A stretch of DNA of 49,740 nt, taken from NCBI GenBank assembly GCA_018399355.1, contig JAGYOA010000001.1:1-49740 (forward strand). Reading direction: 5' to 3'. Positions 18,760-47,858 of the stretch are shown here, piece after piece. Numbering within the stretch: the first letter of the stretch is position 1; the number at the start of each line of letters is the position of its first letter. Source of the stretch: Candidatus Woesearchaeota archaeon. Lineage in GTDB: Archaea > Nanobdellota > Nanobdellia > Woesearchaeales > CG1-02-33-12. Below the pieces are notes generated by a model that saw nothing but the letters and a program-made list of their open reading frames with translations, ran no database searches and had not been told where the DNA came from. The translations under genes and the position numbers were made by a program.

Positions 18760-18760
18760 T

Positions 18761-23427: not shown

Positions 23428-23499
23428 TTTGTGTCTACTCTAAAGTAAAATTAAATAAAGATTGATTAAAATAATTGATTAATTAAACAAAAGTCAATT

Positions 23500-23548
23500 A
23501 AAAAACCTGATAAAAATAAAAATTAATTAAAAATTAAAAAGAAAAAGG
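23500..23548 (-). terminator. Oligo-T (archaeal intrinsic) terminator region after the major pilin gene
   Basis: Several T5-T6 runs on the minus strand immediately downstream of the stop at 23552 (plus-strand A runs at about 23501-06, 23537-41, 23543-47). Confidence 0.4.
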
Positions 23549-23551
23549 TAA

Positions 23552-24079: not shown

Positions 24080-24133
24080 TTTATCTCCTCCTTTTTAATT
24101 AAAATTGATTATATCCTTTTAATTATCTATTTG

Positions 24134-24143
24134 TTATATAAAG
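24134..24143 (-). promoter_or_regulatory. TATA box of the major pilin gene
   Basis: Minus-strand CTTTATATAA about 55 nt upstream of ATG 24079, followed by SD GGAGGAG (24085-24091). Confidence 0.55.
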
Positions 24144-24156
24144 TTTTCGTTTTCAA

Positions 24157-25817: not shown

Positions 25818-26012
25818 AAAAGAACCCCTTTGGCTTTCTATGATTACAAAAGAAAAAAAGGTTACTGCAATTGCAGATGAAAAAGAGAGCAGTATTGACC
25901 TTTTAACAAGCTGTTTAGGAGTTATATTTATGTGAGCAATCTTTATATCCTCCCTTATTCTAGGGAATGCTCTTACTATGATATTAACTAAATCTATTAT
26001 TTATACCGCCTC

Positions 26013-27470: not shown

Positions 27471-27489
27471 ATAAACACCTCTTTTATTT

Positions 27490-29277
27490 TTATGGCGGCT
27501 TAGGAGGTTCTATTTCAGCACCTTCATCTTTTTTGAATATCCTATAAAAAGGTTTTTTTTGTTTTTTAGTTGATTTAATATCTTTTGGCATTGGCAATGG
27601 ATTTTTTTCATGTTTTTGCCTTGGCGGCATAGGTGGAATCTTCATCTCTGGATTTTTCAGTATTTTTGGTTGAGGTTTTTGCAAAGGTTCTCCTGTTTTC
27701 ATTTTTGGAATTGGTCTTTGATTTTTTAAACCATAATCAATTTCGCTGGAATTAGGAAGAATCATCTCCTTACTATCATCTCTTAAGCTTTCCTTAAGCT
27801 CAGGCATATTTATGCCTATTTTACCAGTTGAGTCCATATTTGATATATCCTTATAGAAAGAAAGTATTCTTGTTCTCAATTCTGTTTTTTTCTGAAGAAA
27901 TCCAGAAGGAAGAGAATTATATGTGTTGATTATTTTATTGTAAAGCTCATGTGCAAGATCATACCTTTTATTCTTGACATGGCTGAATGACTCTTTAAGC
28001 ATATTCTCTATGATATTATACTTTTTGTTAAAGTCATAAACAGAGGTTTTGTCAAGCTCTATTGCAAGCCTTTCGTAAAGGTTAAGCATTATTCTCTGCA
28101 GTTCTGTTTTTTGCCTTAAAAAGCCCTCGGGCATGCTGTAAAAAACCTCTTTCATTTTAGAATATATCTCTCTTGCAGGTTCAATTTCTTTTTTTTCAAG
28201 GTGTTTGTTCATATCTCTAGAAAGCTCCTCTATCCTTTCTGTCTTTTTTTCCATATCTTCCATTGTTATTCTTTTGTAATCAGAAAGGAGCTGGTCATAA
28301 AGTCTTAATATCCTTGACTGCAATTCAGCTTTCTCCTGCAAAAATCCAGATGGGAGGGTATTGTACATTTCCCTTATCCTCGTGTAGAGTTTTATAGCCA
28401 ACTGAATATTTTTTTCTTTTATTGCCTGGTTCATCTCTTCAAGCATAGTTATTATTTCTGTCTTTTTTTCAGATATATCCATTAAATCTTTTTTTTCTCT
28501 TACAGTTATTAGCTCTTCATATGCATCAATTATACTGTTTTGAAGTACAAGCTTTTGTTCAAGAAAACCATTTGGAAGCTCATTATATCTTTCTTTTATA
28601 TCTCCATATATCCTTATTGCGCTTACTATATTTCCCTTTCTTATTTCACTCTGAATGTCTCCAAGCAATTTATGTATTTCCTGCGAATTCTTCTCCATCT
28701 TTCTTCTAGACTCTTTGCTTAGATTCATACCAAGGTCATCGCTTAGCTTAACAAGGTTCTGGTTTATAGAATCCTTTTTTTTAAGAAACTCTTCAGGCAA
28801 TTTGTTGTATCTTGCCTCTATCTTTGAATATATTTCCTTTGCCTTTTCAAATTTTTTCTTTTTTATGCATCCATATGCTTCTGCAAGAAGTGTTTCAATA
28901 TCTGATGCATCATTCTTCTCAGAAAATTCCACTTCATTAGGATCATCATCTTTACTTTCCTCTTTTTTCTCGCTTTTTTCTTTAATTATTTTGCTTGGCT
29001 TTTGTTTTGTTTTATTTGTTTCTGGCTTTTCTGTGAAAACTGTTATAAAAGGTGTTGTAAAATTGTATTTTATAGACAAAACATTTTCTTCTTCAAGAAA
29101 GTTTGCCCAAGATTCAATTGTAGAAGGATCTGCACCAAGAGCTTTCGCAGCGTCATCAAAAGAGATTTCACCCCTTTGCTTGACAAGTCTAACTAGCTCG
29201 TCTGCTTTTGTCTTTACAACGTTCACCTCTTTTTCAAACCTGTTTAAGAGATCTTCGTCTTTCAACTCAGGCTTCAT
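27490..29277 (-). CDS. Hypothetical protein: N-terminal wHTH-like domain, five ~74-aa helical repeats, Pro/Lys-rich tail; first gene of the pilus operon
   Basis: Repeat cores 'YNKLPEEFLKKK','YNELPNGFLEQK','YNTLPSGFLQEK','FYSMPEGFLRQK','YNSLPSGFLQKK'. TATA-like CTTTAAATATC (29299-29309) about 27 nt from the ATG. Confidence 0.75.
   Translation of the reverse strand: MKPELKDEDLLNRFEKEVNVVKTKADELVRLVKQRGEISFDDAAKALGADPSTIESWANFLEEENVLSIKYNFTTPFITVFTEKPETNKTKQKPSKIIKEKSEKKEESKDDDPNEVEFSEKNDASDIETLLAEAYGCIKKKKFEKAKEIYSKIEARYNKLPEEFLKKKDSINQNLVKLSDDLGMNLSKESRRKMEKNSQEIHKLLGDIQSEIRKGNIVSAIRIYGDIKERYNELPNGFLEQKLVLQNSIIDAYEELITVREKKDLMDISEKKTEIITMLEEMNQAIKEKNIQLAIKLYTRIREMYNTLPSGFLQEKAELQSRILRLYDQLLSDYKRITMEDMEKKTERIEELSRDMNKHLEKKEIEPAREIYSKMKEVFYSMPEGFLRQKTELQRIMLNLYERLAIELDKTSVYDFNKKYNIIENMLKESFSHVKNKRYDLAHELYNKIINTYNSLPSGFLQKKTELRTRILSFYKDISNMDSTGKIGINMPELKESLRDDSKEMILPNSSEIDYGLKNQRPIPKMKTGEPLQKPQPKILKNPEMKIPPMPPRQKHEKNPLPMPKDIKSTKKQKKPFYRIFKKDEGAEIEPPKPP
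27841..28899 (-). repeat. Five degenerate ~74-aa protein repeats (period 73-75 aa) inside CDS 27490..29277
   Basis: The conserved aromatic of the 'YNxLPxGFLxxK' core falls at residues 157, 231, 305, 380 and 453. Confidence 0.8.
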
Positions 29278-33155: not shown

Positions 33156-33176
33156 GGTATTTTTAAAAACAAAAGC

Positions 33177-33186
33177 TTTATATATA
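33177..33186 (+). promoter_or_regulatory. TATA box for cassette A
   Basis: TTTATATATA lies in the 45-nt gap after metG and ends 30 nt before ATG 33216. Confidence 0.5.
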
Positions 33187-33215
33187 TTTTATAAGAATTA
33201 GTGTGTAGAGGGAAT

Positions 33216-35342
33216 ATGTTGAGGAAAAGAGGCCAGGTAAGCGTATTTATTATTATAGGGATTCTGTTAATTCTTTTTGTTGGCATAGCTTTGTTTATAA
33301 GATCAATTATAACAGAAGACACAGAGCAGCAGCCAGAGGATATCCCCTCTGAATTTTATCCTGTAAAAATTTTTATTGAGCAGTGTATAAGCAGGACTGC
33401 TTCTGAGGCAATACAGCTGATAGGTGAATCTGGAGGTTATACAAACTTAGATGAGTTTGGGATAACACATACATCTGACCCAACAACATCTCAGGCAGTT
33501 CAGTTTTCTCCTGAAAGCTCTTTGAATGTTGCATACTGGTGGTATCTTAAAAGCTCGAATGACTGCTCAGGAAACTGTGAGTTTTCATCAGAGATGCCCT
33601 ACTTAAAAAGTGAATATGATAAGGGAGAGGAAAGGTCTTTTATGGATTCCTCTGTTGAGGCCCAGATTGATAGATATGTAAATGAAAACTTAGAAGAATG
33701 CTTGAATAATTTTCAAGATTTTGAAGCGCAGGGATTTACAGTAACAAAACTTGGCAATGTAACAGCAACAACAACTGTAAGAGATAAAGATGTTCTTGTT
33801 TCAGTGGATTACCCTATTGAAATAAAAAAAGGAAATATTAATTCAAAGCCCTCAAAATTCTTTACAGAAATTCCTGTGATGTTAAAAGATGTTTATGAGC
33901 TTGCGTTTATGATAACCAGTGATGAAATAAACTATCATTTCCTTGAGATAAACACTCTTAACTTAATATCTGCCTTCTCTGATATAGATGAGAATAAGCT
34001 GCCCCCCATGGCAGGCTCTGAATTTCAGTTAAAAGCTCCAGTCTATTGGACAAAGCCAGATGTAGAAACAAAAATTGAGGAAATGCTTATGAGCTATATT
34101 CCTTTATTGCAGGTTAAAGACACATTGAACTACCAGGACAGAATTTCAGGAGACACTATAAAAGACGGAATATATGAGCATATGACGATTCCATCATATG
34201 GAGATAATTACAAAAGAACTGCATCTAATTTCGCTTACCTTGGATGGTGGAGTATATACTTTGACATAAACTCGAGATCTGGATTAATAATGCCTGAATC
34301 AGCATCCTCAAACTTTCTGCCATTGGACATAGGAATACAAAGATATGACTTTTCATATGATATTTCATATCCTGTTGTTGTAACATTAAACAGCCCAGAC
34401 TCTTTTAATGGAAAGGGCTATTCATTCAGATTTGCTCTTGAAGCAAACATAAGAAATAATGAGCCAATGAACTCTTCATTTATTTCATTGGAAAGTTTTG
34501 GTGAAGAGCAATCAATGTTCTGTGATATAAACAAGAGAAACAGCGGAGATATTACAATAAAAACATTTGATGCACAGACAAAACAACCTATTGACAAAGT
34601 TATGGTTTATTACTCATGCGGACAAGAGTCATGCTTTATAGGGCAGACAGAACTAAAAGACAATCAAGCTGTTCTTGAAACAAAACTTCCAATATGTGCA
34701 GGAGGAACTATAACTTATACAAAGCCTGATTACATAGGATATTCGCAATTTTTAAGCACAGAGGTTGATGAAAGCGCAACACTTTCTTCTGTTAATCTTG
34801 AGCCAATAGAAATAAAGAAAATAGAAGTTAAAAAGAAGAATCTTGTTAAACAAGACGGATCATGGATTTTCCAGAATAATCCTTTATCTTTATCATGGGA
34901 TGAGCAGGCAATAATCTCTCTTGAAAGAATAGGAAAAGAAGGCGAGGAAGAATTCACAGCTGTCGCTGAATTCAAGGGCGGCCAATCAAATCCTTCTGAG
35001 ATAAGGATAGCCCCTGGAAAATACAAGGTTAATATCCAGCTTATGCTTGACAGCAAAGTAGTTATTCCTGAAAGAACAGAGAAGATATTGGGAATTATAC
35101 CAATAGCAAAGGTTCCTGAGATTGAGCTTGAGCCATATCCTGCAGGAGGAGTAATCTTTGATGAAAACAATGCATTTGAAATAAAAACAACAGATCATAA
35201 TACAATTGAGTTTTACAGCCTTTATGTTGATATTCCATCAATACCTCTGTCACAAAGAACTCATAAAGATATTGAAGAAACAGGAAAGATAGAGGATTAT
35301 TCAAAATACTACAGAAAAAGCCTGGAGCCAAGTTTAAGATGA
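33216..35342 (+). CDS. Cassette A gene 1: large (~708 aa) protein with pilin-type class III signal peptide; paralog of 41071..42972
   Basis: 'MLRKRG|QVSVFIIIGILLILFVGIALFI'. I prefer ATG 33216 over GTG 33201 because the TATA TTTATATATA (33177-33186) lies only 15 nt from the GTG. Shared motifs with the paralog are listed in the findings. Confidence 0.75.
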   Translation: MLRKRGQVSVFIIIGILLILFVGIALFIRSIITEDTEQQPEDIPSEFYPVKIFIEQCISRTASEAIQLIGESGGYTNLDEFGITHTSDPTTSQAVQFSPESSLNVAYWWYLKSSNDCSGNCEFSSEMPYLKSEYDKGEERSFMDSSVEAQIDRYVNENLEECLNNFQDFEAQGFTVTKLGNVTATTTVRDKDVLVSVDYPIEIKKGNINSKPSKFFTEIPVMLKDVYELAFMITSDEINYHFLEINTLNLISAFSDIDENKLPPMAGSEFQLKAPVYWTKPDVETKIEEMLMSYIPLLQVKDTLNYQDRISGDTIKDGIYEHMTIPSYGDNYKRTASNFAYLGWWSIYFDINSRSGLIMPESASSNFLPLDIGIQRYDFSYDISYPVVVTLNSPDSFNGKGYSFRFALEANIRNNEPMNSSFISLESFGEEQSMFCDINKRNSGDITIKTFDAQTKQPIDKVMVYYSCGQESCFIGQTELKDNQAVLETKLPICAGGTITYTKPDYIGYSQFLSTEVDESATLSSVNLEPIEIKKIEVKKKNLVKQDGSWIFQNNPLSLSWDEQAIISLERIGKEGEEEFTAVAEFKGGQSNPSEIRIAPGKYKVNIQLMLDSKVVIPERTEKILGIIPIAKVPEIELEPYPAGGVIFDENNAFEIKTTDHNTIEFYSLYVDIPSIPLSQRTHKDIEETGKIEDYSKYYRKSLEPSLR

Positions 35343-38300
35343 TAAAGAAAATATCTGCAATTTTTGCAATAATGCTAATACTTATGCTTCCTATTTACAG
35401 CGCAAACGTCTTTGCCTCAATAAATAATGTTAGGGTTTTTGGAAATGATCAGCTAGAAGGTTATAGAAGAGAAGACGATTTAACATACGTGCTTGCAGAT
35501 GTATCTATAAGCGGGGATGATGCAATAAATCCTGAACAGGTTTTTTTCAATAATCAAGAATTCAGCAACTGCATGGCATCAGGAGATTATTTTACCTGTG
35601 TTTTAGGATTAAACAAAAATAAAATAGAGCCAAAAACACATTCTTTTACCATAAATCTTAAAGATAAATCAGGAAAAACAGTTGACACATATACAAGTAC
35701 TTATGTTGTTGATGCAAAAGCCCCTTTAATAACAAGCTTTATTGTCTTGCCAAAAGTCACAAAAAAAGGAAATCTAACAGTAGAGTATAATATAAGAGAC
35801 TATTCCTATGAATCAAATCCAGGGTCGGGCATTAAAAAAATTGTTATTTGCAAAGATGACCTTGCAAATATTGTAAAAGAAATAGAAATAAACGGAACAT
35901 CAAGTCTTGATGCAAGAAAGCTCAGCTTTAAGACATCTGATTTTATTGAATCAACAGGTTCTGCTGATGTATGTATAATAGCTTATGATATGTTAGGACA
36001 GGCATCTGAGATGAAATGCGAAAAGCTAACTGTTGACGAAAAAAGCCCCGAGATTAAAACGGATGCTTTTCAGATAACTGATTCTTCAGGGAATGAAATA
36101 GATTATATATCAACAAATCCTGTATCAGCAATAGTTGCTGTTGAAATTGAAGACGAATCTCTTGCAAAGGTTACTGCTGACTTATCTGAACTTAATAGCC
36201 AGGCATCATACAAAAACATGGAAGCAGAATGTATTAATAATGATAATCTTTATGAATGCGCATGGCCTGTAACAATAAAGCTTTCTGATTCTGGAAAAGT
36301 AAGCATAAAAATAACAGCAGAGGATGCTGTTGGAAACAATGCTGAAAAAACAGTAAGCCACACTTTCAAGTTTGATAAAACCGGGCCTGTAGTTAAATCA
36401 ATATCAAACATTATAGAAGAGGGAGAAATAAAATATTTAGGCAAGAATAATAACCTGGTTTTAGAAATCGAAGAAAAAGATTCAGGGTTAAACCTTGAAA
36501 ATGTTTGGATAAGAATAGGAAGCTCAAACATAAAAACAGATGAATGCGTTCAAGAAGGAAGCAGTTGGAATTGTTACTTTAATGATGTAAGTGTAAATAG
36601 CGCTGATGGCTCTTCTGTTGTTGTTTCAGTAAGCCCTGACTCAAAAGATGATGTTGGAAATAAGTTTGACTTAAGCAAAGGAATTTCTTCTGAAACTTTT
36701 GTAATGGATTCAAATGCTCCCCTCTTAATTGGTGAGATTGAAATAACAAAGATTGGAAACCATTCATACAGTGATATGTATGAAACAGATGAATTTGCTT
36801 CAGGAGACAAACTTAATATAAAAGCAACCTTAAATGAAAAATCAAAATTAACTGCTAAAGCTGATCTTTCTGCAATAGGCTTTGGAAAAGCTGAGCAGGG
36901 TTCATGCTCGCAGCAGGAAAACAATTGGGTTTGCGAATGGAATATAGGGCCTATTGCATCCGGCCCAATAAAAGGAAATCTTAATTTTGAATTTACTGAT
37001 ATTGTTGGAAACACTGCTGAAAAAACAGTGCCCATTAATGTTTTAGGTGTTTATGATGAAGAAAAACCTGATTTCTGGTATGTTGAAAAAATTGAAAAGA
37101 TGCCCAAGGCAATTGACAGGCAGACAACTGAATTGATAACACATAAACAATATGTGCATGTAAGCCTTAAGCCAATATATGACAGATGCGGAACTTCAAT
37201 CTTGGCAATGGATTTAGAGTGCACAGGAGACACAGGATACATAGAAAATTATGAGCTAATTAATGAAAACTCAGAAGATCCTTACATTGTTGTAACATTA
37301 AGCCAGCAGGAAATGCCTGAAAACTCATTGTCATTAAACTGCAATCTTCTTATAATATCAAAAATCTGCGGAGATACAATAGCCGCAAATGTTGAGGAAG
37401 AACCGGTTAAGTTTACAGTTGATTTTTACAATATGCCTCTTGGTGAAGTAAGTGATAATGTAAAAAACAAGATAAAAGAGGCTCAGGACAGCTGGCTAGT
37501 GCAGCAAGAATGGATAGGAGAGCTTGAGAAGTGGATAACATATGCTGAAAAAATATGTGGGCTTTTTGGTACATGGAACAAGGTTAACCAAGCATTGGCA
37601 AATGTTGAAGCATTGCTTGAGGTAATTAAGGTTCCAGGAATATCAGACGCAATAAAAAATAGTTTTAAGGAAACCACTAAAAAAAGCGTTGATGCATATA
37701 AAAAATACTATTTCAACCAAGACACAGGTGAAGAAGGAATTGGATTCAAAGTTTGTAAGTATATTTCGTGTGATCAGGGATTGTGGGGAGACTGGTATAA
37801 TGAAATAATATCAGAGCACAGCAAGCCGTTAGGTGAAAGCGGGTTTACTGCAACAATATGGCCCTCAAGTCCAAAAGACAGCCTTGTTTTAAGCCTTGCA
37901 ACTGGTTGCCTGCCGGGAATAGTGCATAACATGCAAAAAAGAAGGCAGGTTGAATGCTATTATGTGTTATGCCTGAAGAATGCAGCTGTTGAGGGAGTTT
38001 CGCTTTATGTTTGTGATGAGCAGAAAGCCTATCTTGAATGCATGTTTATTTACGGAGAGATATTCCAGATAATTCCATTTGCAGGTTTTTTCAAGGGACT
38101 TGTCAGCAATGTTCAGACAATATTTGCTGACCCTATAGGAATGATATTCGCAGGAATAAACTTTTACTGTGATATGCAGCCAGCAGGAGCGCTCCATGCA
38201 GGATGTGTTATCGCCCATTTGGTTCCAACTTTAGCTGAGATAACTGAAGATATAGCAGGCTTTGTTGATACAGAGAGCTGGCAGGTGGGTGATGTTTGCG

Positions 38301-38419
38301 AGGAAGCTTTAAAGCCAGTAGATGATTTAAATATGAAGTTGGGCCAACAGCAAGAAAGATCAAACCAAGAAAACACAACAGACCAAGAAGACAACCAAGA
38401 CGAAGGTGAAAATGAATAA
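35339..38419 (+). CDS. Cassette A gene 2: giant secreted protein (1026 aa) with Ig-like repeats plus a Cys-rich C-terminal domain
   Basis: Sec signal 'MIKKISAIFAIMLILMLPIYSANVFA'. Recurrent Ig-domain boundary motifs 'VDAKAPLITSF','DEKSPEIKT','DKTGPVVKSI','DSNAPLLIGE'. ATGA overlap with gene 1. Confidence 0.8.
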   Translation: MIKKISAIFAIMLILMLPIYSANVFASINNVRVFGNDQLEGYRREDDLTYVLADVSISGDDAINPEQVFFNNQEFSNCMASGDYFTCVLGLNKNKIEPKTHSFTINLKDKSGKTVDTYTSTYVVDAKAPLITSFIVLPKVTKKGNLTVEYNIRDYSYESNPGSGIKKIVICKDDLANIVKEIEINGTSSLDARKLSFKTSDFIESTGSADVCIIAYDMLGQASEMKCEKLTVDEKSPEIKTDAFQITDSSGNEIDYISTNPVSAIVAVEIEDESLAKVTADLSELNSQASYKNMEAECINNDNLYECAWPVTIKLSDSGKVSIKITAEDAVGNNAEKTVSHTFKFDKTGPVVKSISNIIEEGEIKYLGKNNNLVLEIEEKDSGLNLENVWIRIGSSNIKTDECVQEGSSWNCYFNDVSVNSADGSSVVVSVSPDSKDDVGNKFDLSKGISSETFVMDSNAPLLIGEIEITKIGNHSYSDMYETDEFASGDKLNIKATLNEKSKLTAKADLSAIGFGKAEQGSCSQQENNWVCEWNIGPIASGPIKGNLNFEFTDIVGNTAEKTVPINVLGVYDEEKPDFWYVEKIEKMPKAIDRQTTELITHKQYVHVSLKPIYDRCGTSILAMDLECTGDTGYIENYELINENSEDPYIVVTLSQQEMPENSLSLNCNLLIISKICGDTIAANVEEEPVKFTVDFYNMPLGEVSDNVKNKIKEAQDSWLVQQEWIGELEKWITYAEKICGLFGTWNKVNQALANVEALLEVIKVPGISDAIKNSFKETTKKSVDAYKKYYFNQDTGEEGIGFKVCKYISCDQGLWGDWYNEIISEHSKPLGESGFTATIWPSSPKDSLVLSLATGCLPGIVHNMQKRRQVECYYVLCLKNAAVEGVSLYVCDEQKAYLECMFIYGEIFQIIPFAGFFKGLVSNVQTIFADPIGMIFAGINFYCDMQPAGALHAGCVIAHLVPTLAEITEDIAGFVDTESWQVGDVCEEALKPVDDLNMKLGQQQERSNQENTTDQEDNQDEGENE

Positions 38420-40202
38420 AACTAAACTTGCAATCACATTGATTTTGTTTATGCTTGTAGTTTCAGTTAGTGTTATGGCTGATGAATGGCCAAAGGTAGA
38501 AAAAATAAGTGATGGAAATTTCAAAATAACATACGAAAATGGAGTATATTATGAAATTAGTAATAATGATTATGGTTACTTAGTTGATGATATAATAATT
38601 AAGTTAAGTAAAATAAAACCAGACGAAGAGTCGCCATCAATCACACAACAGAGAGGTGTTTATTTTGTAATATGGACGGAAGGAGGAATATTTAAAAAAG
38701 AGAGTATTCCTCTGACTAATGTAGATCCTGAAACTTTAATTAATTTTAATATGGAACAAGCAGATGTACCACAAGAAGAAGAACACCAAACCGAAGAAGA
38801 AATTAATGAAAATGCTGGAACATCAACAGAAGAAGAAGAACACCAAACCGAAGAAGAAATTAATGAAAATGCTGGAACATCAACAGAAGAAGGAGAAACC
38901 CCTAATGAAATAGAAAACGATTTGGCAGGTATAATAAACAAAGATTCTTATAATTTTATAACAGGAACTCTTAAGGTTAATAAAGAAGATATTTTAATAG
39001 ATGAAGAGAAAAGAATATTACGTTTTAAAGTTGACCCACAAAAAGCTGATCCAAACTCAGATGAGCAAGATTATGAGGTAACTATAAAAACTGATGAAAA
39101 TGGGGGAGTAATCGAAAAGAATTATATAAAAGAGTTAGAGGATGGAGGAATTAAGGTTAGTACATATAAGGCTGGTGAGAAGAATCCTGATACTATAATA
39201 TTTAATAAAGATGGATCAATAAGTAAAGATACACTTCCAATAGAACCACTCCCCAATACTGTAGTAAGTGAAGAAATGGAAGAGCAAATGAATAGGTTAA
39301 ATTCAGAAAGATTACAGGCATATCAAGCTATACAGAAAACATCTTTTATTAATGAATTGAATAGATTGGTAGAAAAATACAAGGAAGGCGGAAAAGAAGC
39401 ATTTTCAGAGGATGAAGAAGAACTACTATTCTTGAAGAATGCAAAAAACATAGCAAAAAATAAGTATGGTATAGATGAGAATGACCTTACCTACGAGCAA
39501 AAAGTGATAATAGAACATGCATCTCAGACATATGCTGATATATTTTATGATTCTGTCAGGGCCGCTCGTGGAGGAATAGCTCTCTCCAACTTATTAAACA
39601 GCTGGCTGGACTGGGATTTTATGATGGGCTGGAGAAAGAAAAGTGATGAATTCTTTTCACAGACAGTTATTGGAAGGGTAATAAGCGGAAGATGGGAGGA
39701 AAGCTTATGCCATAAGCATATTGACAGGATTCCAAACAATGTTGCTGTTGTGAATGTTAATGGTGTTATGGGATTTGCATCTCATATTGAAGGAGAAAGA
39801 AGCGAATCAATAGCAACAAATAATCAAACAATATACTTTTACAAGATAACCTTCGCTGTAAATCCGCAAATAGACAAAGAAATAAAATTTGAAATATTAA
39901 TTGATGGCAAGAAAGCAGACCTTGATAATGATGGAAAAGCAGATACAATAACTCTTAAGCCAGGAGAAAGCTATAGCGGGACAGGAGAAAATGCAATAGT
40001 CCGTTATAAAGATAAGATTTACAAGAAAGTATGTATTAAGTTTTATAACACAGAAAATTTAAACAAGGAATTCACAAGCTCTCTAAAAGACAACAAACTA
40101 TGTAACACAATTGTTGAAACATATGTAGCTCCAGGAAGCATATCAAAGCCAGCAGAAACAGCAGCTGGTTCTGGAACAGCATCATCATCAGATGCGTGGT
40201 AA
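38406..40202 (+). CDS. Cassette A gene 3: secreted protein (598 aa) with acidic tandem repeat
   Basis: Signal 'KLAITLILFMLVVSVSVMA'. Overlaps gene 2 by 14 nt (GTG 38406; alternative ATG 38412). Its C-terminal ~200 aa resemble an internal part of 42977..47017. Confidence 0.75.
   Translation: MKMNKTKLAITLILFMLVVSVSVMADEWPKVEKISDGNFKITYENGVYYEISNNDYGYLVDDIIIKLSKIKPDEESPSITQQRGVYFVIWTEGGIFKKESIPLTNVDPETLINFNMEQADVPQEEEHQTEEEINENAGTSTEEEEHQTEEEINENAGTSTEEGETPNEIENDLAGIINKDSYNFITGTLKVNKEDILIDEEKRILRFKVDPQKADPNSDEQDYEVTIKTDENGGVIEKNYIKELEDGGIKVSTYKAGEKNPDTIIFNKDGSISKDTLPIEPLPNTVVSEEMEEQMNRLNSERLQAYQAIQKTSFINELNRLVEKYKEGGKEAFSEDEEELLFLKNAKNIAKNKYGIDENDLTYEQKVIIEHASQTYADIFYDSVRAARGGIALSNLLNSWLDWDFMMGWRKKSDEFFSQTVIGRVISGRWEESLCHKHIDRIPNNVAVVNVNGVMGFASHIEGERSESIATNNQTIYFYKITFAVNPQIDKEIKFEILIDGKKADLDNDGKADTITLKPGESYSGTGENAIVRYKDKIYKKVCIKFYNTENLNKEFTSSLKDNKLCNTIVETYVAPGSISKPAETAAGSGTASSSDAW
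38775..38888 (+). repeat. Perfect 2 x 57-bp in-frame tandem repeat (19 aa 'EEEHQTEEEINENAGTSTE' x2)
   Basis: Direct comparison shows 38775-38831 is identical to 38832-38888. It lies inside CDS 38406..40202. Confidence 0.9.
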
Positions 40203-41034
40203 AATGGATTATATAAAACAAAACATAAAATTATTGATGGAAAGCTTTAAGCTAAACAAAAAAACATGGAGCATAACTGCTGCCTATGACTTAGTTTTAA
40301 TTTTAATATCATATATCCTGCTGTTTTTATGGTCTTTATGGATGACATCATTTCTTTCAAAAATAAACCTTGATGTTTCTGCATTAACAGAAGAAACAAT
40401 AAGAGATGTTGCTTCATTAAAAAGTTTCTACTACGGAACCATAATCTCTTTATTTGTTCTTGCAATATTTCTCTTTTTTATCTGGTGTTTTTTTAAGGGA
40501 ATATTATGGTCTGTTATATTAAACAAGCATTTTGATTTGAAATACTACAGCAGGTTTATTTTGCTTAACCTGACCTGCATTCCTTTGTTTATTATTCTAT
40601 TTTTTATTTTTCTGCTTATTACCCAAATAATAAACTATTTGATTTTTTTAACACCTGCATTGATGCAAAATAACTTAATAGCAGTTTTAATTACTTCACT
40701 GATATTTTTCATTGTATTTATGCCTATTATAGTTTACATGATGATACTGCCTTCATTGGTTTATTATTATTTTACAAAAAAGAATGATATGGTCTTCTCT
40801 TTCAGCAAAATGTTTGATATAGCAGTAAGGAAAATCCATCTCTTCTATGTTCCATGTCTTCTGATAACCTTTGTTTTTGTATTGATCTCAATTATAACAA
40901 TCCCATTAAGAGTTCTTCCTGAATCAATAATTTTCCTGGTTTTTCTTTTGATATTTATTTTCTACATTGCATGGGCAAGAATGTATATAATCTCTTTTAC
41001 TGAATCATTCAGCAAAAATCACCACAAGATTTAA
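40192..41034 (+). CDS. Cassette A gene 4: ~6-TM integral membrane protein; paralog of 46956..47807
   Basis: Six hydrophobic segments, e.g. 'LVLILISYILLFLWSLWMTSFL', 'IISLFVLAIFLFFIWCFF', 'IIFLVFLLIFIFYIAWA'. Start is ATG 40192 (11-nt overlap) or ATG 40204 (1 nt after the upstream stop). Confidence 0.7.
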   Translation: MRGKMDYIKQNIKLLMESFKLNKKTWSITAAYDLVLILISYILLFLWSLWMTSFLSKINLDVSALTEETIRDVASLKSFYYGTIISLFVLAIFLFFIWCFFKGILWSVILNKHFDLKYYSRFILLNLTCIPLFIILFFIFLLITQIINYLIFLTPALMQNNLIAVLITSLIFFIVFMPIIVYMMILPSLVYYYFTKKNDMVFSFSKMFDIAVRKIHLFYVPCLLITFVFVLISIITIPLRVLPESIIFLVFLLIFIFYIAWARMYIISFTESFSKNHHKI

Positions 41035-41044
41035 ATATATATTA
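41033..41044 (+). promoter_or_regulatory. TATA-like box for cassette B
   Basis: AAATATATATTA overlaps the stop of 40192..41034 and lies about 30 nt before ATG 41071. Confidence 0.4.
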
Positions 41045-41070
41045 TAATAGGTTATTTTTAAGTGGATATC

Positions 41071-42972
41071 ATGAAAAAAAGAGGTCAGGTAACTGTATTT
41101 ATTATACTAGGAATTTTCATTCTTATCGGGATAATACTATTTTTTTATCTTAGGTTAAATACATCTATTTTCACTCCTGATGTTGTTGTTCCTCAGCAGG
41201 TTGCCCCTCTTAAAAGGTATGTTGAAAGCTGCGCGTATGAGATAGGCAAGGAAGCAATAATAACAATTGGAATACAGTCAGGATATGTTGAAATTCCAGA
41301 GCAGATATCAATGGACCCTGATGCATATATTCTTGTTGGAGGCCCAATAAAAACCCCTTACTGGCATCTTCATGGAGAAGACATCTCTCCTACCATAACA
41401 GATATTCAGGAACAGATATCTGATCATGTATCTAAAAATCTAAAGCAGTGCCTGAAAAACTTTTCTGATTTTGATGAATTTGTAATAGAAGAAAAAGATG
41501 AACTTACTGTGAAAACAACAATTGCAGAAGAAGAAGTAGTGATAAATCTGGATTATCCTTTGATAATAAAAAACAGAAAAGGAGACAAGATAACAGAATG
41601 GTCTTTGTACACAAGCTCTGTTCCTGTAAGGCTAAGAAAGATATACAGGCTTGCAAAAAACCTCATGAATGCGGAAAATAATGATATGTTTTTTGAGAGA
41701 AAAACAATAGACCTTATGGCCCTTGACCCAGAGATACCTTTCACTGATATGGAGTTTTCATGTTCTAACCTTGAATGGAGCAAAACAGAAGTTAAAAACA
41801 GTGTCCAGGAATTATTGTATTATAATCTTCCAAAGATAAGAATTGACAGGACAGACTATATACCCTTCCTTCATCCTGATCCAGTATACAGAGAATTTCA
41901 AAAAATAGATATTGAAAATGATGAAATTCCAGATAATATCCCTGAAGATATATATGAATACAACCAGTTTTTCTGGAAGCCTTTAACTGAGGGTTTCAAT
42001 GATATGAAAGTGGGTGTAAGATATATGAAGGACTGGGGAATGCATTTTGAGGCAAGTCCAAGCGACGGTGATTTGATGAGCTCAAATATGGTTGAGGGAT
42101 CTTCAGAATACTTAAGCATGCTCTGCATAAATATTTATCATTTCACTTATGATATAATTTATCCTGTTGAAATAGCAATAAGGGATGAAAAATCATTTAA
42201 TGGAGGGGGTTATGTTTTCAGATATGCTTTTCCTGTTTTAATAAAGCAAAACAGCCCAGACAGGTCTGATTTCAAGGTTAGTTCTATTGATGCATACACA
42301 GATGCAGGGTTCTGCAGTGAAATTACTGAAGATGAATATGTAATACAGGCGAGAAACTCAAGAACCCAGGAAGAGATTGACAATGTAAGTATCGTATTTG
42401 AGTGCGTAAAATATAAATGCAGTCTTGGATTTACAGAATCAGATGCAAACTCATACCGCCTTAAGACAGCTATACCTTCTTCCTGCACAAATGGAATAGT
42501 AAAAGCAAGCAAAGAAGGATATTTAACTGATGAAAAATATGTAACAAGCAGAAATGTATTGCTTGAGATGGATCCTTTAAAAAACTTTGATTTCAAGGTT
42601 ATGAAGGTTGATAAATCAGGACAAAAAACAGAACTTGCCAATGATGAAACAGCTGCAATATACATAAAATCAGCTGAAAAAGATTATAATGTTTTTGCAG
42701 TATATCCTAAACAAGAAGATATGGAATACATAGAGCTAATTGATAACAAGGCAAATTACCAACTTGAAATTTTCCTTATGAATGGCGATGATTTAACAGG
42801 AGGCTACAATGCAGAATGGAATGTTAGCTATTCTGATATTAATGGAAAAAGAAAGATTTTGTTTTATGTTTATGATATTGGAAAAGCAGAAACAAATGAT
42901 AAAAAAATAGAGATGGTTAGCTTCCTTAATGAAAACAAGAATAATGAAGATCTAATACCCAAGTTTAACTAA
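41071..42972 (+). CDS. Cassette B gene 1: large (~633 aa) protein with pilin-type class III signal peptide; paralog of 33216..35342
   Basis: 'MKKRG|QVTVFIILGIFILIGIILFFYL'. ATG 41071 lies about 30 nt downstream of the TATA-like AAATATATATTA (41033-41044). The track uses GTG 41062. Confidence 0.75.
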   Translation: MKKRGQVTVFIILGIFILIGIILFFYLRLNTSIFTPDVVVPQQVAPLKRYVESCAYEIGKEAIITIGIQSGYVEIPEQISMDPDAYILVGGPIKTPYWHLHGEDISPTITDIQEQISDHVSKNLKQCLKNFSDFDEFVIEEKDELTVKTTIAEEEVVINLDYPLIIKNRKGDKITEWSLYTSSVPVRLRKIYRLAKNLMNAENNDMFFERKTIDLMALDPEIPFTDMEFSCSNLEWSKTEVKNSVQELLYYNLPKIRIDRTDYIPFLHPDPVYREFQKIDIENDEIPDNIPEDIYEYNQFFWKPLTEGFNDMKVGVRYMKDWGMHFEASPSDGDLMSSNMVEGSSEYLSMLCINIYHFTYDIIYPVEIAIRDEKSFNGGGYVFRYAFPVLIKQNSPDRSDFKVSSIDAYTDAGFCSEITEDEYVIQARNSRTQEEIDNVSIVFECVKYKCSLGFTESDANSYRLKTAIPSSCTNGIVKASKEGYLTDEKYVTSRNVLLEMDPLKNFDFKVMKVDKSGQKTELANDETAAIYIKSAEKDYNVFAVYPKQEDMEYIELIDNKANYQLEIFLMNGDDLTGGYNAEWNVSYSDINGKRKILFYVYDIGKAETNDKKIEMVSFLNENKNNEDLIPKFN

Positions 42973-42976
42973 GAAA

Positions 42977-45900
42977 ATGGAAAAAACAAAAATATCAGCA
43001 CTATTCATGATAATGCTAATTTTAATTATACCTTTTTACACATCCTCTGTTTTTGCCCAGGATGAAACAGTTGTTGATAACACTCCACCTTCAATAAATA
43101 TAAAAAATCCTCCTAGTGAAGTAACAGAGCCATTTTTGGATATAGAGGGAACAACGAATGAGCCAGTTATAATTGAAACAACAATAAACTCTAACTTGTA
43201 TAGCACATTAAGTTCAAACCAGGACAACACATTTAAAATACCAATAACCCTGAATGAAGGAAAGAATATAATTGAAATTAAGGTAACTGATGCAGGAGAA
43301 AATTTTGTTGTTAAAGAATTTGAGATTTATTGCGATTCCCAACATCCCCAAATAATGTACAATAACATACATGAGCTTAGTCCCTCATATGTTTCAAAAA
43401 GAACTGTAAGGGGAACAGTAAACAAGCCAGAAATTGATATTGAGGTTTATGTAGGAGATAAAAAATATTCTGGAAAATCTGATTCCCAGGAAACTTCAGA
43501 AGGAATGTATGGTTTTGAAGTGGATATATCTCTTGAAAGAACTCTTAATATTGATGGAACCGGAACAGTAACAACACAGGAGGATAATGTATGGCAAAAT
43601 CCAGTAAAGATAGTTGCAATAGACAACTATGGAAGAAATTCAACTGCGGAAGGAACAATAATTTATACGTTATGCGGATATGGGCATGATTGGGATGTAA
43701 GAACAACAAAAGTTACTCCTGAAGTTATAATACCTGAGCACCTTATAATGGGAATTGCCCAGTTCAGTTTCTCAGCAAATTTAAGCTATTTAGGCAATGC
43801 TGAATCAAATAAGGTTATTATAACAAGCCCTCCCCAGATCACAAGATATGACTTAAGTCAAGCAGATATGGAAGATGAAAAAGGGATTATTTTCAAGGAA
43901 AAATACTATCAGGAACTTTTCAACAGTGCAACGCCTTTCTGCAATGAAGATAATGACGTTTGCTATTTTGTTGTTAATCTTAATTCCTGGCCTTACACAA
44001 GAGAAGAGCTTCAGAATGTTACATTCATAAAGATACCATTAAGGATGGATATATACTATGAGTATGAGGATATCAACGGTAATATAATTGACAACAGCCA
44101 GAGAAACTGCTGGGATATAGAAATAATGGTTGACAAGGAGATTCCTCTTGATAAGATACCTAAAAATCTGCTTAACAAATCAATTAACTTTCTTAACAAA
44201 AGCATTGATTTAATTGATACAATAAGAAAACCTATTGAAACTGTCAAAAAATATACTTTTGTTGCTTGTATTGGCTCATGGGCAGTTCATTTCTTTAAGT
44301 CAATAAGTGTTGAGTTTTCATGTGTTGGAGTAAAAGGAGATGCAATCCCTGCATTGATAAGAGGAGAGGAAACATGTACCACACAAAATATGGATGATGA
44401 AGGAAATTTACTTGACTGTGATGCGTGCCTTCAAAATCTTAAAGAGTTAAGGGAAATTGAAAAAACAAGAAACTGGATATGTGACAGAATATTCTGCCCT
44501 AGTGTACCGACTCTTGACTACCACAAGCAAACGTATGAAGACAGTGTGACAAAGGTAAACCTTTGCAAAGGAGTAGAGGGAATGGAAGGAATACTTGACG
44601 AAGAAGACTGTGAAGAAGAATACAAAAGAGCATGGGATTCTGCATTTTTAATGCTTGATGAGTGGGAAAGGGCCACAGCAGAAGAAAATGAAACAACAGA
44701 AGGCTTTTTTGATATGATTTCAGAAGGTTTGCAGTTCTGCAAAAGAGCAAACGAGCAGACAACGCAGGCCATAACAGTAGGCTCAGGAAGCAAGCAGGAA
44801 ATTTATATAATAACAGAAAAGGGAGATATAATCATGGCCTCAGAATGGGCAAAGTTAGAAGATGTTAAAGAGGAAAAACAGGGTGTTGAAGTACAAGAAG
44901 GCCAAGAACAAATATACTATACTTATGACACAGGACAACCATTAAAAGTAGATGAAAAGGGTTATTTCATTTATAACGGATCTCCAAATAATTTTTATCA
45001 GAATAATAAAGAGGATCATATCTATGTTTGCCCTGATGATAACTTTTGTAATGATGGTAATAAAGATATTACAATGATTAGTGGAAAAGAACTTTACATC
45101 AATGAAAAAGGAGAAATCCAAATTTGGGAAGATGGCACTGATGAAAAGTATGAATCTTCCAAAATTAAAGATAACAATTATAACACTCTTTATAAAGATA
45201 ATAAAGGTAACATAAATATTTATAGTGAAAACACAAGAGAAAGTGATATAAAAAGGCTTCCTCCTATTGTACAGTCAGCAAGAGGCATAGAAGGAGAAAA
45301 CAACTACATTCTTGACCCGACTTCTGACATTATAAGAAGTGTACAGGCCGTATGCCTGCCTGCTGTTTCAGGATGGCTTAACTTATGGAAACAGATACTT
45401 ACTGCAGTAAAGCAGTGCTTTGAATCAATAATGATAACTGGCCAGGGAAGCACAGGGGTTTGCAAGGCAGTATTAACAACATATGTATGTGATATAATCT
45501 ATGATGCAATAAGGTGCACAACAGACTCTTTTGCATTGGGCGCAGGCCAGAAAGCAACAGGAGGACTAGTTGGTTTTGCCCAAAAAATATCAACTGCATC
45601 AAAAGGGGTTTCTGATTCAGTCTCGTCAAGATACGGCCAGACAGGAATGTTTGATGTCATGTTCAACCAAAGAAAACTCATACACTCAAGCTGCTTGTGG
45701 GCATTTACAGGAGACTGGGGGCAGTTTGACCTTGACACTATGTTAAGCGCTGAAGTCGGAATGCCCAACCTTGGAAGCCAGGGACTGCTTTACCCCACTA
45801 CAAGAAGGTTTATTGGATCTAATCCATTAGAATACGGCAGAACAACTTATGTATATCATATCGGCGCTGGAATAATAGCTGGCTCAGACCTTAACTACAA

Positions 45901-47017
45901 AGTTTATCTTAAATGCTCGAATGATAACTCTTGTTTAGAAGGAAGATGTGACTGTTTTTACAAAGGACAGGAAGAGATTTACAGCGTCAATGCAGGAAGC
46001 TTAAAGGCAGGAGAAATATATAATCAGGAATATTATGTGCAGCAGCCAGATCATTCAATAAGGTATGACAAGGCAGTTATTGAATGGAGCTGGACAGACA
46101 ATAATGGCCAAAGGCAGACAGAAACTATTGTTAAAGACCTGCAGGAAAAGGGAGAGGGCACTCCAGTGGAATGTAAGCTTGACCCGACAAGCGGGGAATT
46201 CAGATGCGCTTATATAATAGGAAAATACGGCGATGCAAGGATTGTTGATGTGCTTCCATCTAATGAAAAAAACCTTAACAGAGAGCCTTATTCAATAGGT
46301 GAAACAATTAACTTTGATATAACAGTACATGTTGAAAGCCCAGATCCATCTAATCCAATTCCAAAATATGTCAAATGGAGCCTAAGAAACAGCAAAAATA
46401 AAATGCTTTATAATGACTCATACAAAATAGAAAAAGATGGACTTTCAGAAGAAAATTTTCCCGATAAAAAGGTTGAACAATTATGCTGCGGAACTAGCCC
46501 CAAACTAATCTATTTTGAAGAATTGAGAGACCATGATAAATTAGAAGTAGAAATTATAGAAAGGCCTCCTGATTACAACCAGTTTGCAATAGTTTTTACC
46601 TCCGATGACTACCTAACCATCTATGAAATAGGGAAAAAAGAAGTAAATGAAGATGAAACAGAATGGGAACTACAAGAAGAAATCACAGAAAGGTTATACT
46701 CCTATTTTGATGAAGAACATAGAGAAATAGAATTTACTATTGAATCAAAAAAAGTTAAGTTAGAGATTAAGGGAGATCCAAAAAAAGGAAATGCTGTAGT
46801 TGTTGTAATGCAAAGAGAAGTAAAAAAGCAGGATTGCATTGAAGGCGAGGAAAATATGCACTTCAAGGTTGAGCTGCTTCATTCCAAGACTACTGAAGAC
46901 CACGAAGGAGAGTGCTGTGCAAAGAGAATAGAGACAGAGGACATAAAATTTACTATTGATTGTAATGAATATGATGAAGAGGAAAATGGAGAAGAGGAAG
47001 AAGAAAACAATAGTTAA
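42977..47017 (+). CDS. Cassette B gene 2: giant secreted protein (1346 aa) with Ig-like N-terminal domains and a long Cys-rich region
   Basis: Sec signal 'MEKTKISALFMIMLILIIPFYTSSVFA', nearly superimposable on that of 35339..38419. 'DNTPPSINI', 'CDSQHPQIMYN' domain boundaries. Acidic tail 'EYDEEENGEEEEENNS'. Starts 4 nt after the gene 1 stop. Confidence 0.8.
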   Translation: MEKTKISALFMIMLILIIPFYTSSVFAQDETVVDNTPPSINIKNPPSEVTEPFLDIEGTTNEPVIIETTINSNLYSTLSSNQDNTFKIPITLNEGKNIIEIKVTDAGENFVVKEFEIYCDSQHPQIMYNNIHELSPSYVSKRTVRGTVNKPEIDIEVYVGDKKYSGKSDSQETSEGMYGFEVDISLERTLNIDGTGTVTTQEDNVWQNPVKIVAIDNYGRNSTAEGTIIYTLCGYGHDWDVRTTKVTPEVIIPEHLIMGIAQFSFSANLSYLGNAESNKVIITSPPQITRYDLSQADMEDEKGIIFKEKYYQELFNSATPFCNEDNDVCYFVVNLNSWPYTREELQNVTFIKIPLRMDIYYEYEDINGNIIDNSQRNCWDIEIMVDKEIPLDKIPKNLLNKSINFLNKSIDLIDTIRKPIETVKKYTFVACIGSWAVHFFKSISVEFSCVGVKGDAIPALIRGEETCTTQNMDDEGNLLDCDACLQNLKELREIEKTRNWICDRIFCPSVPTLDYHKQTYEDSVTKVNLCKGVEGMEGILDEEDCEEEYKRAWDSAFLMLDEWERATAEENETTEGFFDMISEGLQFCKRANEQTTQAITVGSGSKQEIYIITEKGDIIMASEWAKLEDVKEEKQGVEVQEGQEQIYYTYDTGQPLKVDEKGYFIYNGSPNNFYQNNKEDHIYVCPDDNFCNDGNKDITMISGKELYINEKGEIQIWEDGTDEKYESSKIKDNNYNTLYKDNKGNINIYSENTRESDIKRLPPIVQSARGIEGENNYILDPTSDIIRSVQAVCLPAVSGWLNLWKQILTAVKQCFESIMITGQGSTGVCKAVLTTYVCDIIYDAIRCTTDSFALGAGQKATGGLVGFAQKISTASKGVSDSVSSRYGQTGMFDVMFNQRKLIHSSCLWAFTGDWGQFDLDTMLSAEVGMPNLGSQGLLYPTTRRFIGSNPLEYGRTTYVYHIGAGIIAGSDLNYKVYLKCSNDNSCLEGRCDCFYKGQEEIYSVNAGSLKAGEIYNQEYYVQQPDHSIRYDKAVIEWSWTDNNGQRQTETIVKDLQEKGEGTPVECKLDPTSGEFRCAYIIGKYGDARIVDVLPSNEKNLNREPYSIGETINFDITVHVESPDPSNPIPKYVKWSLRNSKNKMLYNDSYKIEKDGLSEENFPDKKVEQLCCGTSPKLIYFEELRDHDKLEVEIIERPPDYNQFAIVFTSDDYLTIYEIGKKEVNEDETEWELQEEITERLYSYFDEEHREIEFTIESKKVKLEIKGDPKKGNAVVVVMQREVKKQDCIEGEENMHFKVELLHSKTTEDHEGECCAKRIETEDIKFTIDCNEYDEEENGEEEEENNS

Positions 47018-47807
47018 TTATTTTTCTGATTCTTTTGTACTGATAAAGAAAAATCCATTATACTTTTTTATCCCTGTTTTGATTGATATTACATTTATAT
47101 TTGCATTCTTTTTTGTTTATCACTTTTTCCTTTCAAAAATAATGAATAATTTCTTTTCTCTTTTGATGATGACAGGAAACTCTCTTCAGGGAATCATTGA
47201 GGAAAGTCCTGAATCAGTATTACTTATGCACCAGATGAATTCAGCGATAACAGCTATAATATTGTGGGTTATAAGCCTCATCATCTCAAGTTATTTCATC
47301 TATTCAATATTCCAGTCAGCAAGCTGGTTTTTTGCCGGAAAGTTTGTTCATAAAAAATTAATATTAAAGCAATACATAAAAAGATTTTTTGCTGTAAACA
47401 TAGTCTGGCACATTGCTTTTGTTTTAATATCTTATTTTTATGTAAGGGCAGTTATAATGACAGATATTTTCAATATTTACTCAAACTTACAAGCTGTAAA
47501 GCCAATATCATTAATTTTTATGATAACCCTTGCTTATTTTTCATTGATATCTTATGCACTAATCACAGAAAAAGGATTCAGAAAATCAATTAAAGGATGC
47601 TTTGTCATTGGTTTCAAGAGATTCTTTAGTTTGATTTGTTTTTTTGCTGTTTTTGTATTGATATTTTTGATTATAGACCTTTTGCTTAAGGCTATTTTCT
47701 TAATAAGCGAGCCAGTCATGTTAATAATTGGCATAATCATAATATTCCCAATCATAACATATTTCAGGATTGTTTTAATTTCATTAATAAAGGATTTCTC
47801 AGGATAA
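46956..47807 (+). CDS. Cassette B gene 3: ~6-TM integral membrane protein; paralog of 40192..41034
   Basis: Six hydrophobic segments. All candidate ATGs (46956-46986) lie inside the 3' end of the giant gene, so the exact start is uncertain. Confidence 0.7.
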   Translation: MIVMNMMKRKMEKRKKKTIVNYFSDSFVLIKKNPLYFFIPVLIDITFIFAFFFVYHFFLSKIMNNFFSLLMMTGNSLQGIIEESPESVLLMHQMNSAITAIILWVISLIISSYFIYSIFQSASWFFAGKFVHKKLILKQYIKRFFAVNIVWHIAFVLISYFYVRAVIMTDIFNIYSNLQAVKPISLIFMITLAYFSLISYALITEKGFRKSIKGCFVIGFKRFFSLICFFAVFVLIFLIIDLLLKAIFLISEPVMLIIGIIIIFPIITYFRIVLISLIKDFSG

Positions 47808-47858
47808 AAAAAGCATAAAACAAAAGCTTTTTATATAAATGGTTTTACAAAAAAACTA

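Follow-up and report, generated by a model that had tools for sequence, protein, structure and literature searches.

Woesearchaeota are tiny, probably symbiotic archaea and among the most widespread of the DPANN groups; we know of no cultured representative and no host for them, and to our knowledge it is still largely unexplained how DPANN cells recognise and grip their partners. Could a compact run of seven genes in one such genome serve this purpose? The genes lie on the plus strand at positions 33216-47807 of a 49,740-nucleotide stretch (hereafter the window) of contig JAGYOA010000001.1, from the Candidatus Woesearchaeota archaeon assembly GCA_018399355.1, and a first-pass annotation made from the sequence alone had taken them for a tandemly duplicated, host-interacting surface cassette. 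We read them as an operon for a two-module cell-envelope complex, a pilin-anchored display that would make contact with the envelope of a partner or host cell, and we give this reading an even chance of being right. As such, the operon is a concrete, lineage-wide candidate for DPANN partner contact, with seven envelope genes from four families without a Pfam model, one of which (g1) alone has thousands of metagenome members; as a defined unit, it also gives testable predictions on anchoring, assembly and host type.

The operon divides into module A (g1a-g2a-g3a-g4a) and module B (g1b-g2b-g4b), and its seven open reading frames (ORFs), all found where the first-pass annotation had placed them, follow each other on one strand with overlaps or gaps of a few nucleotides:

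33216..35342, plus strand: g1a, 708 aa, with a start backed by homologs and by public gene calls
35339..38419, plus strand: g2a, 1026 aa
38412..40202, plus strand: g3a, 596 aa
40192..41034, plus strand: g4a, a 280-aa polytopic membrane protein and the last gene of module A
41071..42972, plus strand: g1b, 633 aa, a paralog of g1a
42977..47017, plus strand: g2b, 1346 aa
about 46965..47807, plus strand: g4b, a polytopic membrane protein of ~273-283 aa, a paralog of g4a and the last gene of module B

Public gene calls place identical starts at 33216, 35339, 38412, 41071 and 42977 (five of the seven genes) and leave the products unnamed. The start of g4b is uncertain: its ORF opens at a TTG at 46956, ATGs follow at 46965-46986, and the overlap with the end of g2b is 32-62 nt depending on the start chosen. 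The tight junctions described earlier are mostly as reported, with a real ATGA overlap between g1a and g2a (35339-35342), an 11-nt overlap between g3a and g4a, and a 4-nt gap between g1b and g2b; the 14-nt overlap given for g2a and g3a applies if g3a starts at a GTG, but shrinks to 8 nt from the ATG at 38412, which is preceded by AGGTGA. Similarly, the gene order had been called the same in both cassettes, and it is similar but not identical, module A having the additional g3a.

All four conserved families (g1, g2, g3 and g4) are without Pfam, NCBIfam or PDB relatives. Pfam and NCBIfam scans of the seven proteins gave nothing above the cut-offs, and PDB profile searches gave nothing for g1, g4, g3 and g2a and only fn3 for g2b; with Foldseek included, matches are limited to generic Ig, fn3 or CnaB-like sandwiches, and none falls in the conserved cores. 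We found no description of the operon in the literature. As the first-pass annotation required, the proteins belong to no characterised family, the paralogy between modules is supported, and the gene order is conserved in other genomes.

Regarding the paralogy, g1a and g1b align by BLASTP at E=1e-46, with 25-26% identity over ~550 aa, and their family profiles align at full length at E=2.5e-90. No BLASTP match links g4a to g4b (each ~280 aa, as first noted), and their family profiles align at full length with E=7e-21 and probability 99.3; each has five to six hydrophobic segments, where six transmembrane (TM) segments had been counted. For the giant proteins, the proposed pairing stands in part. 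The signal peptides of g2a and g2b (window positions 35339-35420 and 42977-43060) are 65% identical, and the Ig-like repeats match at E=7e-10 and 2e-15, but the Cys motif 'SLATGCLPGIV/SVQAVCLPAVS' (g2a 844-882, g2b 780-818) reaches only E=6e-5 and 2e-4, and the pair 'EKWITYAEKIC.../VKKYTFVAC...' is not significant on its own (E=0.11). When the g2b insert at 546-774 is removed, the two Cys-rich cores are colinear over 195-277 columns (P=1e-4 to 4e-4, versus P 0.1-0.7 for reversed and unrelated controls), and g2a and g2b are probably homologous, short of proof. A weaker signal (P=0.003) pairs g3a 462-552, in its C-terminal domain, with g2b 940-1043; that g2b might be a fusion of g2 and g3 we leave as an idea, the support being weak, and a BLAST cluster that joined g3 and g2b was discarded, as it rested on two local matches in variable regions.

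One genome per GTDB species was scanned with a g1b alignment, which gave 80 loci (given below as L plus a number), and the ORFs of these loci were assigned with family hidden Markov models. The homologs come from metagenome-assembled genomes of Woesearchaeota and 'Nanoarchaeota'. Of the 34 loci with enough upstream sequence, 28 have module A immediately upstream of g1b; g2b follows g1b in 49 of 49 loci, g4b follows g2b in 40 of 45, and ten loci hold the complete seven-gene order. Module B also occurs without module A (L011, L020, L040 and L074), so a module can stand on its own. The g1 family has many members: a profile search against 1.84 billion cluster representatives matched 8259 of them at E<=1e-3 and 1545 at E<=1e-30. 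The window proteins share 25-40% identity with their orthologs (36-40% for g1a and 30-37% for g1b), while identity between the genome's own g1a and g1b is only 25%; therefore, both modules are older than the radiation of the lineage. Their separate retention across Woesearchaeota runs counter to the recent or actively diversifying duplication that had been envisaged.

Comparison with the closest relative, L003, shows which parts of the operon change fastest. The flanking genes, methionyl-tRNA synthetase (MetRS) and a downstream Zn-ribbon gene, are 96% and 95% identical between the two, and the operon proteins have these BLASTP identities to L003:

g1a: 87%
g1b: 78%
g2a: 69%
g2b: 72%
g4a: 65%
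g4b: 85%
g3a: 43% (55% over the global alignment)

Diversifying selection, which the earlier proposal implied, is not what these genes record: dN/dS versus L003 is 0.12-0.33 across the operon, net purifying for all genes, and 0.05-0.08 in the flanks. Hypervariability is limited to residues 1-350 of g3a (pN ~0.3-0.47, close to pS) and some segments of g2, while conservation is high in the C-terminal 200 aa of g3, in the g1 head and in the g2 cores. Across orthologs, g3 lengths span 598-2227 aa and g2b lengths 1346-2500 aa, the latter mostly 1700-2500. The proteins are thus conserved trunks with fast-changing ends. Against this background, we consider it very improbable that a recent tandem duplication, confined to this lineage and under diversifying selection, produced the operon, or that it is a mobile island or one gained by horizontal transfer. 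Synonymous divergence could be read in favour of such an origin, as operon dS is 0.4-1.1 versus 0.24-0.37 for the flanking MetRS and Zn-ribbon genes (window versus L003), though this difference may reflect recombination between strains or different codon constraints; however, g1a and g1b are each better conserved among orthologs than they resemble each other, the operon occupies the same position between MetRS and the downstream genes in close relatives, its GC content is like that of the rest of the window, and dN/dS is below 1 for every gene.

What would attach such a complex to the cell? Both g1 proteins open with a class III (prepilin-type) signal, that is, a short basic leader, G, A or S at position -1 and a hydrophobic stretch of ~20 aa. 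With the predicted cleavage site marked by a slash, g1a begins MLRKRG/QVSVFIIIG (it reads MLRKRG followed by QVSVFIIIGILLILFVG) and g1b begins MKKRG/QVTVFIILGIF; the motif has K or R at -2, G, A or S at -1 and Q at +1, and continues as [ILV][ST][ILV]F and a hydrophobic helix. Position -1 is G, A or S in ~80% of 107 g1a-type and 96% of 75 g1b-type sequences, and the Q at +1 is nearly invariant. A Gln at +1 is characteristic of the EppA-processed pilins of Methanococcus maripaludis (PMC3875500), although those substrates have a Glu at +5, which g1 lacks.

Structurally, an AlphaFold2 (AF2) model of g1a built from 107 sequences (predicted local distance difference test score, pLDDT, 86.9) comprises an N-terminal helix (3-36), a low-confidence acidic linker, an alpha/beta head (~45-430), beta-sandwich domains of CnaB/CarboxypepD_reg type (~440-680) and a C-terminal helix. 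In Foldseek searches the sandwich domains matched CnaB/CnaA Ig-like stalks, with E=3e-6 to 1e-3 to BcpA, SpaC, RrgA, SdrD and a B. anthracis TIE protein; individual values were 3e-6 for 6fwv, 2.6e-4 for BcpA and, for CnaB2 (8bdw), TMt 0.64 with a root-mean-square deviation of 3.2, while whole-chain TM values of the matches were 0.1-0.3. Matches to phage baseplates and fibres come through the same sandwich domains. The head itself had no Foldseek match in PDB or BFVD, and no pilin fold appeared among the matches of the whole model, which was searched in one piece.

This architecture invites comparison with known anchored surface proteins. The Sulfolobus bindosome uses large globular proteins with a pilin-type N-terminus (PMC4858521), and the g1 model would share with it a big globular extracellular part set behind a pilin-type helix and linker; unlike archaeal pilins and bindosome proteins, g1 is 630-710 aa long, combines CnaB-like domains with a head that matches no known fold and has no Pfam pilin match, and unlike bindosome and type IV pilus (T4P) genes, the g1 genes are not linked to a T4P or Bas ATPase or platform. 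With the stalks of Gram-positive sortase pilins, MSCRAMM and TIE proteins, g1a shares its C-terminal sandwiches, which are generic stalk domains only. Unlike in sortase pilins, no LPXTG motif with a TM tail was found at the C-termini of g1a, g1b, g2a and g2b, a Pfam scan of 47 window ORFs, which covered all but five of those of 100 aa or more, found no sortase, no isopeptide residues are evident, and the organism is an archaeon.

The pilin-type signal also raises the possibility of a true T4P tip or minor-pilin complex, in which g1a and g1b would be large modular pilins that the nearby T4P machinery draws out of the membrane and sets at the pilus tip, with g2 and g3 bound to them as tip adhesins. 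A T4P locus does lie where the first-pass annotation had put it, ~4 kb away: at 20682-29277 (minus strand), 3.9 kb from the operon, we found a T2SSE ATPase, two T2SSF genes (ATPase and platform genes at 24157-27470), small pilins with [KR]AQ sites and a VWA protein. The g1 class III site, [KR][GA]Q, is of the same kind as that of these pilins, and modular pilins have a precedent, as do large predicted tip adhesins of archaeal T4P loci (PMC8179133; PMC4858521). However, the link to the pilus locus that had been suggested does not extend beyond this genome, as in ~80 other loci the 10 kb on either side of the module contain neither a T4P ATPase nor a platform gene. Moreover, the acidic low-pLDDT linker parts the g1a helix from its head, whereas pilin heads pack on the helix; the g1a head gave no pilin-fold match in the whole-model search; and the T4P locus has minor pilins and a VWA protein of its own. 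Overall, we consider a pilus-tip complex unlikely. The nearest known systems of this kind, S. sanguinis PilB/PilC, P. aeruginosa PilY1 and archaeal DUF2341 proteins, likewise combine a pilin-type anchor with large modules and partners encoded alongside (PMC8179133, PMC9934059, PMC4858521), but neither sequence nor fold searches matched vWA, lectin, PilY1 or DUF2341, and a dedicated 6-TM protein with giant Sec-exported partners is absent from those systems.

The g2 and g3 proteins have the marks of export, with signal peptides, Ig-like repeats and many conserved Cys residues. In g2a, a Sec-type signal peptide is followed by four to five Ig-like repeats of ~110 aa with VDxxxP boundaries and C-x8-C pairs, and the C-terminal half holds a beta-sandwich (580-697), a helical Cys-rich core (~700-1000) and an acidic tail, with 26 Cys overall. 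In an AF2 model of g2a 571-1005, the sandwich is confident and the helical core has a pLDDT of 62; a second homolog search for the g2a family found no deeper set, which limited the depth of the alignment, and Foldseek of this model returned Ig-like matches only. Orthologs of g2a are 28-72% identical. In g2b, a signal peptide near-identical to that of g2a precedes N-terminal Ig-like domains, a conserved Cys-rich core (~380-545 and 775-1100; 35 Cys overall) is split by the variable insert at 546-774, and the C-terminal part (~1100-1346) is variable and ends in an acidic tail; g2b orthologs carry fn3 or Big_13 domains. The g2a and g2b signal peptides are themselves kept across orthologs, with a recurrent LPxYS..V.A pattern that is unusual for Sec signal peptides and may point to a dedicated recognition step.

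In g3a, which starts with a signal peptide, the N-terminal two-thirds are hypervariable, and the C-terminal domain of ~200 aa (~390-598) is conserved. The variable part includes one repeat array:

38773..38897, plus strand: tandem repeat of 57 nt, 2.2 copies with 98% matches, encoding the acidic 19-aa repeat EEEHQTEEEINENAGTSTE

The g4 proteins share conserved positions, namely D, Q or N in TM1, W106 and R263, the TM1 position, the only semi-conserved acidic one, being D in 75%, Q in 15% and N in 6%. An assignment of g4 as a prepilin peptidase (A24) was considered and rejected: g4 has no catalytic Asp pair and no GxGD, and PF01478 matched none of 52 members.

Very large, Ig-rich secreted proteins encoded beside an anchored one recall a surface layer (S-layer). 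In the SlaA/SlaB system of Sulfolobales, a membrane-anchored stalk is encoded beside a very large secreted Ig-rich protein. The operon could by analogy be a general envelope scaffold with a structural role, g1 being a SlaB-like stalk, g2, g3 and g2b a SlaA-like canopy and g4 an assembly factor. The near-universal, syntenic presence of the module across the lineage, the large, acidic, Ig-rich secreted proteins beside an anchor protein, and purifying selection on the cores all fit such a scaffold. Still, we think it rather unlikely: two paralogous modules, and a third divergent one in L002, are hard to fit to a single lattice, murein hydrolase and HINT cargo would be unusual for S-layer proteins, N-glycosylation sequons are few (2-9 per protein), and g3 and g2b lengths vary in the extreme, from 598 to 2500 aa. 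Unlike SlaB, g1 has an N-terminal pilin-type anchor and not a C-terminal TM, and unlike SlaA/SlaB the operon comes in two to three paralogous modules, some with members that carry enzymes. Solved S-layer proteins gave no sequence match except a generic Ig match to SbsC domains (E=2.6e-3).

The variable ends offer a clue to function. When family members were scanned against Pfam for cargo domains, g3 proteins carried SLT in 4 of 40, M23 in 1 of 40 and PT-HINT in 1 of 40, all in the N-terminal variable part: SLT in L056 (195-322, 2.6e-25) and L046 (182-284, 4e-27), Peptidase_M23 in L058 (383-485, 3.8e-17) and pretoxin HINT in L072 (186-308, 2.5e-27). At the C-terminal end of g2b, L068 has SLT (2069-2175, 1.7e-12) plus VanY (2265-2360), and L072 a Hint module. 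The substrate of SLT, M23 and VanY enzymes is bacterial peptidoglycan. In L001, a mini-pair (6281-8396) lies just upstream of the main operon: a 253-aa protein that has a class III signal but of g1 only the N-domain, and immediately after it a secreted SLT protein of 450 aa.

In L072, two observations concern the Hint regions themselves: g3 177-247 and g2b 2212-2283 (genes at 6900-9194 and 11914-18777) are 51% identical, both Hint-type, the g2b copy standing at the very end of the ORF and covering only the N-terminal part of the Hint model, and g3 40-78 holds a fragment that matches the C-terminal end of an intein splicing domain.

Large extracellular SLT proteins of up to 3000 aa have been described as specific to Woesearchaeota and Pacearchaeota, as has 'Module 98', a set of co-occurring unknown families, and attachment to bacterial cell walls was proposed (Castelle et al. 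2021, PMC8204110). Among the g3 and g2b orthologs, several are likewise very large, extracellular, SLT-bearing and from the same lineage; the SLT feature of fam00969 is found in L056 g3, L046 g3 and L068 g2b, and not in g3a or g2b of the window. That study dealt with the presence and absence of families, without an operon, a pilin-type partner, a 6-TM protein or a two-module structure (PMC8204110). A vague published observation, of large SLT proteins and 'Module 98' families, can now be tied in part to a defined conserved operon that contains some such proteins.

Exchangeable ends on a conserved trunk also call to mind polymorphic toxins, and g2b and g3 could be toxins released against competitors, the variable ends being warheads and g4 an immunity or export protein. 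The trunk-and-tip architecture is shared, and PT-HINT (L072 g3), Hint (L072 g2b) and murein hydrolases do occupy the variable ends of some orthologs. Unlike in polymorphic toxin systems, however, no variable immunity gene follows the variable end, where g4b is conserved and paralogous to g4a; most orthologs, and the window proteins, have no toxin-like domain, PT-HINT and Hint being confined to L072; g3 cargo is N-terminal, unlike classical C-terminal tips; and the genes are conserved chromosomal ones. A toxin cassette therefore appears improbable to us.

Functionally, we posit that the pilin-type helix anchors g1, either in the membrane or as part of a short pilin-like assembly, with the head and CnaB-like stalk facing outward. 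The g2 and g3 proteins would be giant Sec-exported stalks whose conserved Cys-rich or C-terminal cores probably dock on g1 and g4, the 6-TM g4 protein would likely be a membrane platform or assembly partner, and the variable ends (in g3 the N-terminal two-thirds, in g2b the C-terminal end) could be exchangeable cargo or ligand-binding ends. Because those ends are murein hydrolases or HINT modules in several species, the most likely role would be to contact the envelope of a partner or host cell and attack it locally. We infer a single complex, with g1 as its anchor, g4 as its platform and host interaction as its function. The proposed design, in which Ig-repeat stalks on a pilin-type anchor bear exchangeable ends, enzymatic or adhesive, resembles known surface systems.

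Several observations weigh against this contact complex. The g1 head and the cores are slow-evolving and near-universal, which fits a housekeeping envelope structure no less than a host-specific device; neither g3a nor g2b of the window has a cargo domain recognisable in Pfam or NCBIfam, and murein hydrolase domains occur in only ~10-15% of the scanned orthologs; no prepilin peptidase (an A24-like polytopic protein) was found in the window, and T4P assembly genes are unlinked to the module in other loci; and the model of the g2a helical core is of low confidence. Of the dedicated, diversifying host-interaction apparatus first proposed, the host-interaction part gains from the SLT, M23, VanY and HINT domains of orthologs, whereas the diversifying part is not supported by the rates given above.

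A bolder form of the contact complex, which we regard as possible though doubtful, is an undescribed lineage-wide DPANN host-contact machine that carries exchangeable cargo on the tips of giant Ig-repeat stalks and whose type of cargo reveals the host. Its scaffold would have a pilin-type anchor and a membrane platform of its own, and its cargo, be it murein hydrolases, domains released by HINT or binders of other kinds, would serve to open the envelope of the partner cell or to grip it. If this were true, murein hydrolase cargo would indicate bacterial hosts, and sequence would allow the hosts of uncultured Woesearchaeota to be predicted.

The module based on g1 looks like a design that recurs. 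In L002, a third divergent module (1507-9381, minus strand) comprises a g1-like protein of 685 aa, whose class III signal is RKSQVTLAII, and two Cys-rich proteins, one of 717 aa that is secreted and one of 280 aa, along with a small ribbon-helix-helix (RHH)-like gene and a gene for a 408-aa TM/Cys-rich protein; a g4-like 266-aa gene lies nearby on the plus strand. In other Woesearchaeota, a gene for a 49-56 aa RHH-regulator-like protein (MSKQIRITVSDEIDKLL...KKKSMLARELMEQ) stands directly upstream of g1a and overlaps it, and it also occurs upstream of the third module (L001 9834-10004; L002 9604-9768 and, on the minus strand, 8552-8701); none precedes g1a in the window, where MetRS ends at 33155.

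As for transcription, each cassette had been credited with a TATA box of its own, a claim that is only half borne out, and the two candidates differ in strength:

33173..33186, plus strand: AAGCTTTATATATA, a B recognition element (BRE)/TATA-like motif ~30-40 nt upstream of the g1a ATG
41033..41048, plus strand: an AT-rich TATA-like stretch in the 27-36 nt g4a-g1b spacer, without the enriched BRE/TATA motif

The motif AAGCTTT(N0-2)ATATA has 8 matches in the window versus 0.1 expected, one of the enriched BRE/TATA-like copies standing upstream of the next gene downstream (47824-47837), and AAGCTTTATATATA is probably the operon promoter, whereas the spacer stretch is possibly a weak internal promoter. 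On sequence grounds, a single operon is the simplest interpretation, and any internal promoter would be weak. Scans with bacterial-type models unsuited to an archaeon gave 49 sigma-70 promoter-like sites versus a shuffle mean of 63, and 11 terminator-like sites versus 8, within chance. The g4a-g1b spacer varies in length among loci, and PIN-domain (VapC-like)-looking genes of ~120-170 aa stand between g3/g4a and g1b in L013, L041, L051, L076 and others.

Around the operon, MetRS lies upstream and the Zn-ribbon gene and an MTAP-like gene downstream, a position common to the closest relatives; a nucleotidyltransferase/HEPN-like pair recurs in the flanks of some loci (L004 and L008). No further g1- or g4-like genes were found elsewhere in the window. 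More secreted surface proteins flank the pilus locus (12621-16228 and 20682-22007, both on the minus strand), among them an Ig-like (HYDIN/VesB-like) protein, a Lamin-tail-domain protein, a 543-aa protein with MG2/DUF4625-like matches, and a protein combining VWA with CarboxypepD_reg. Form III RuBisCO has been reported for the nucleotide-salvage metabolism of DPANN archaea, and the window encodes a form III-type large subunit at 16361-17641 on the minus strand (PF00016 at 2e-88).

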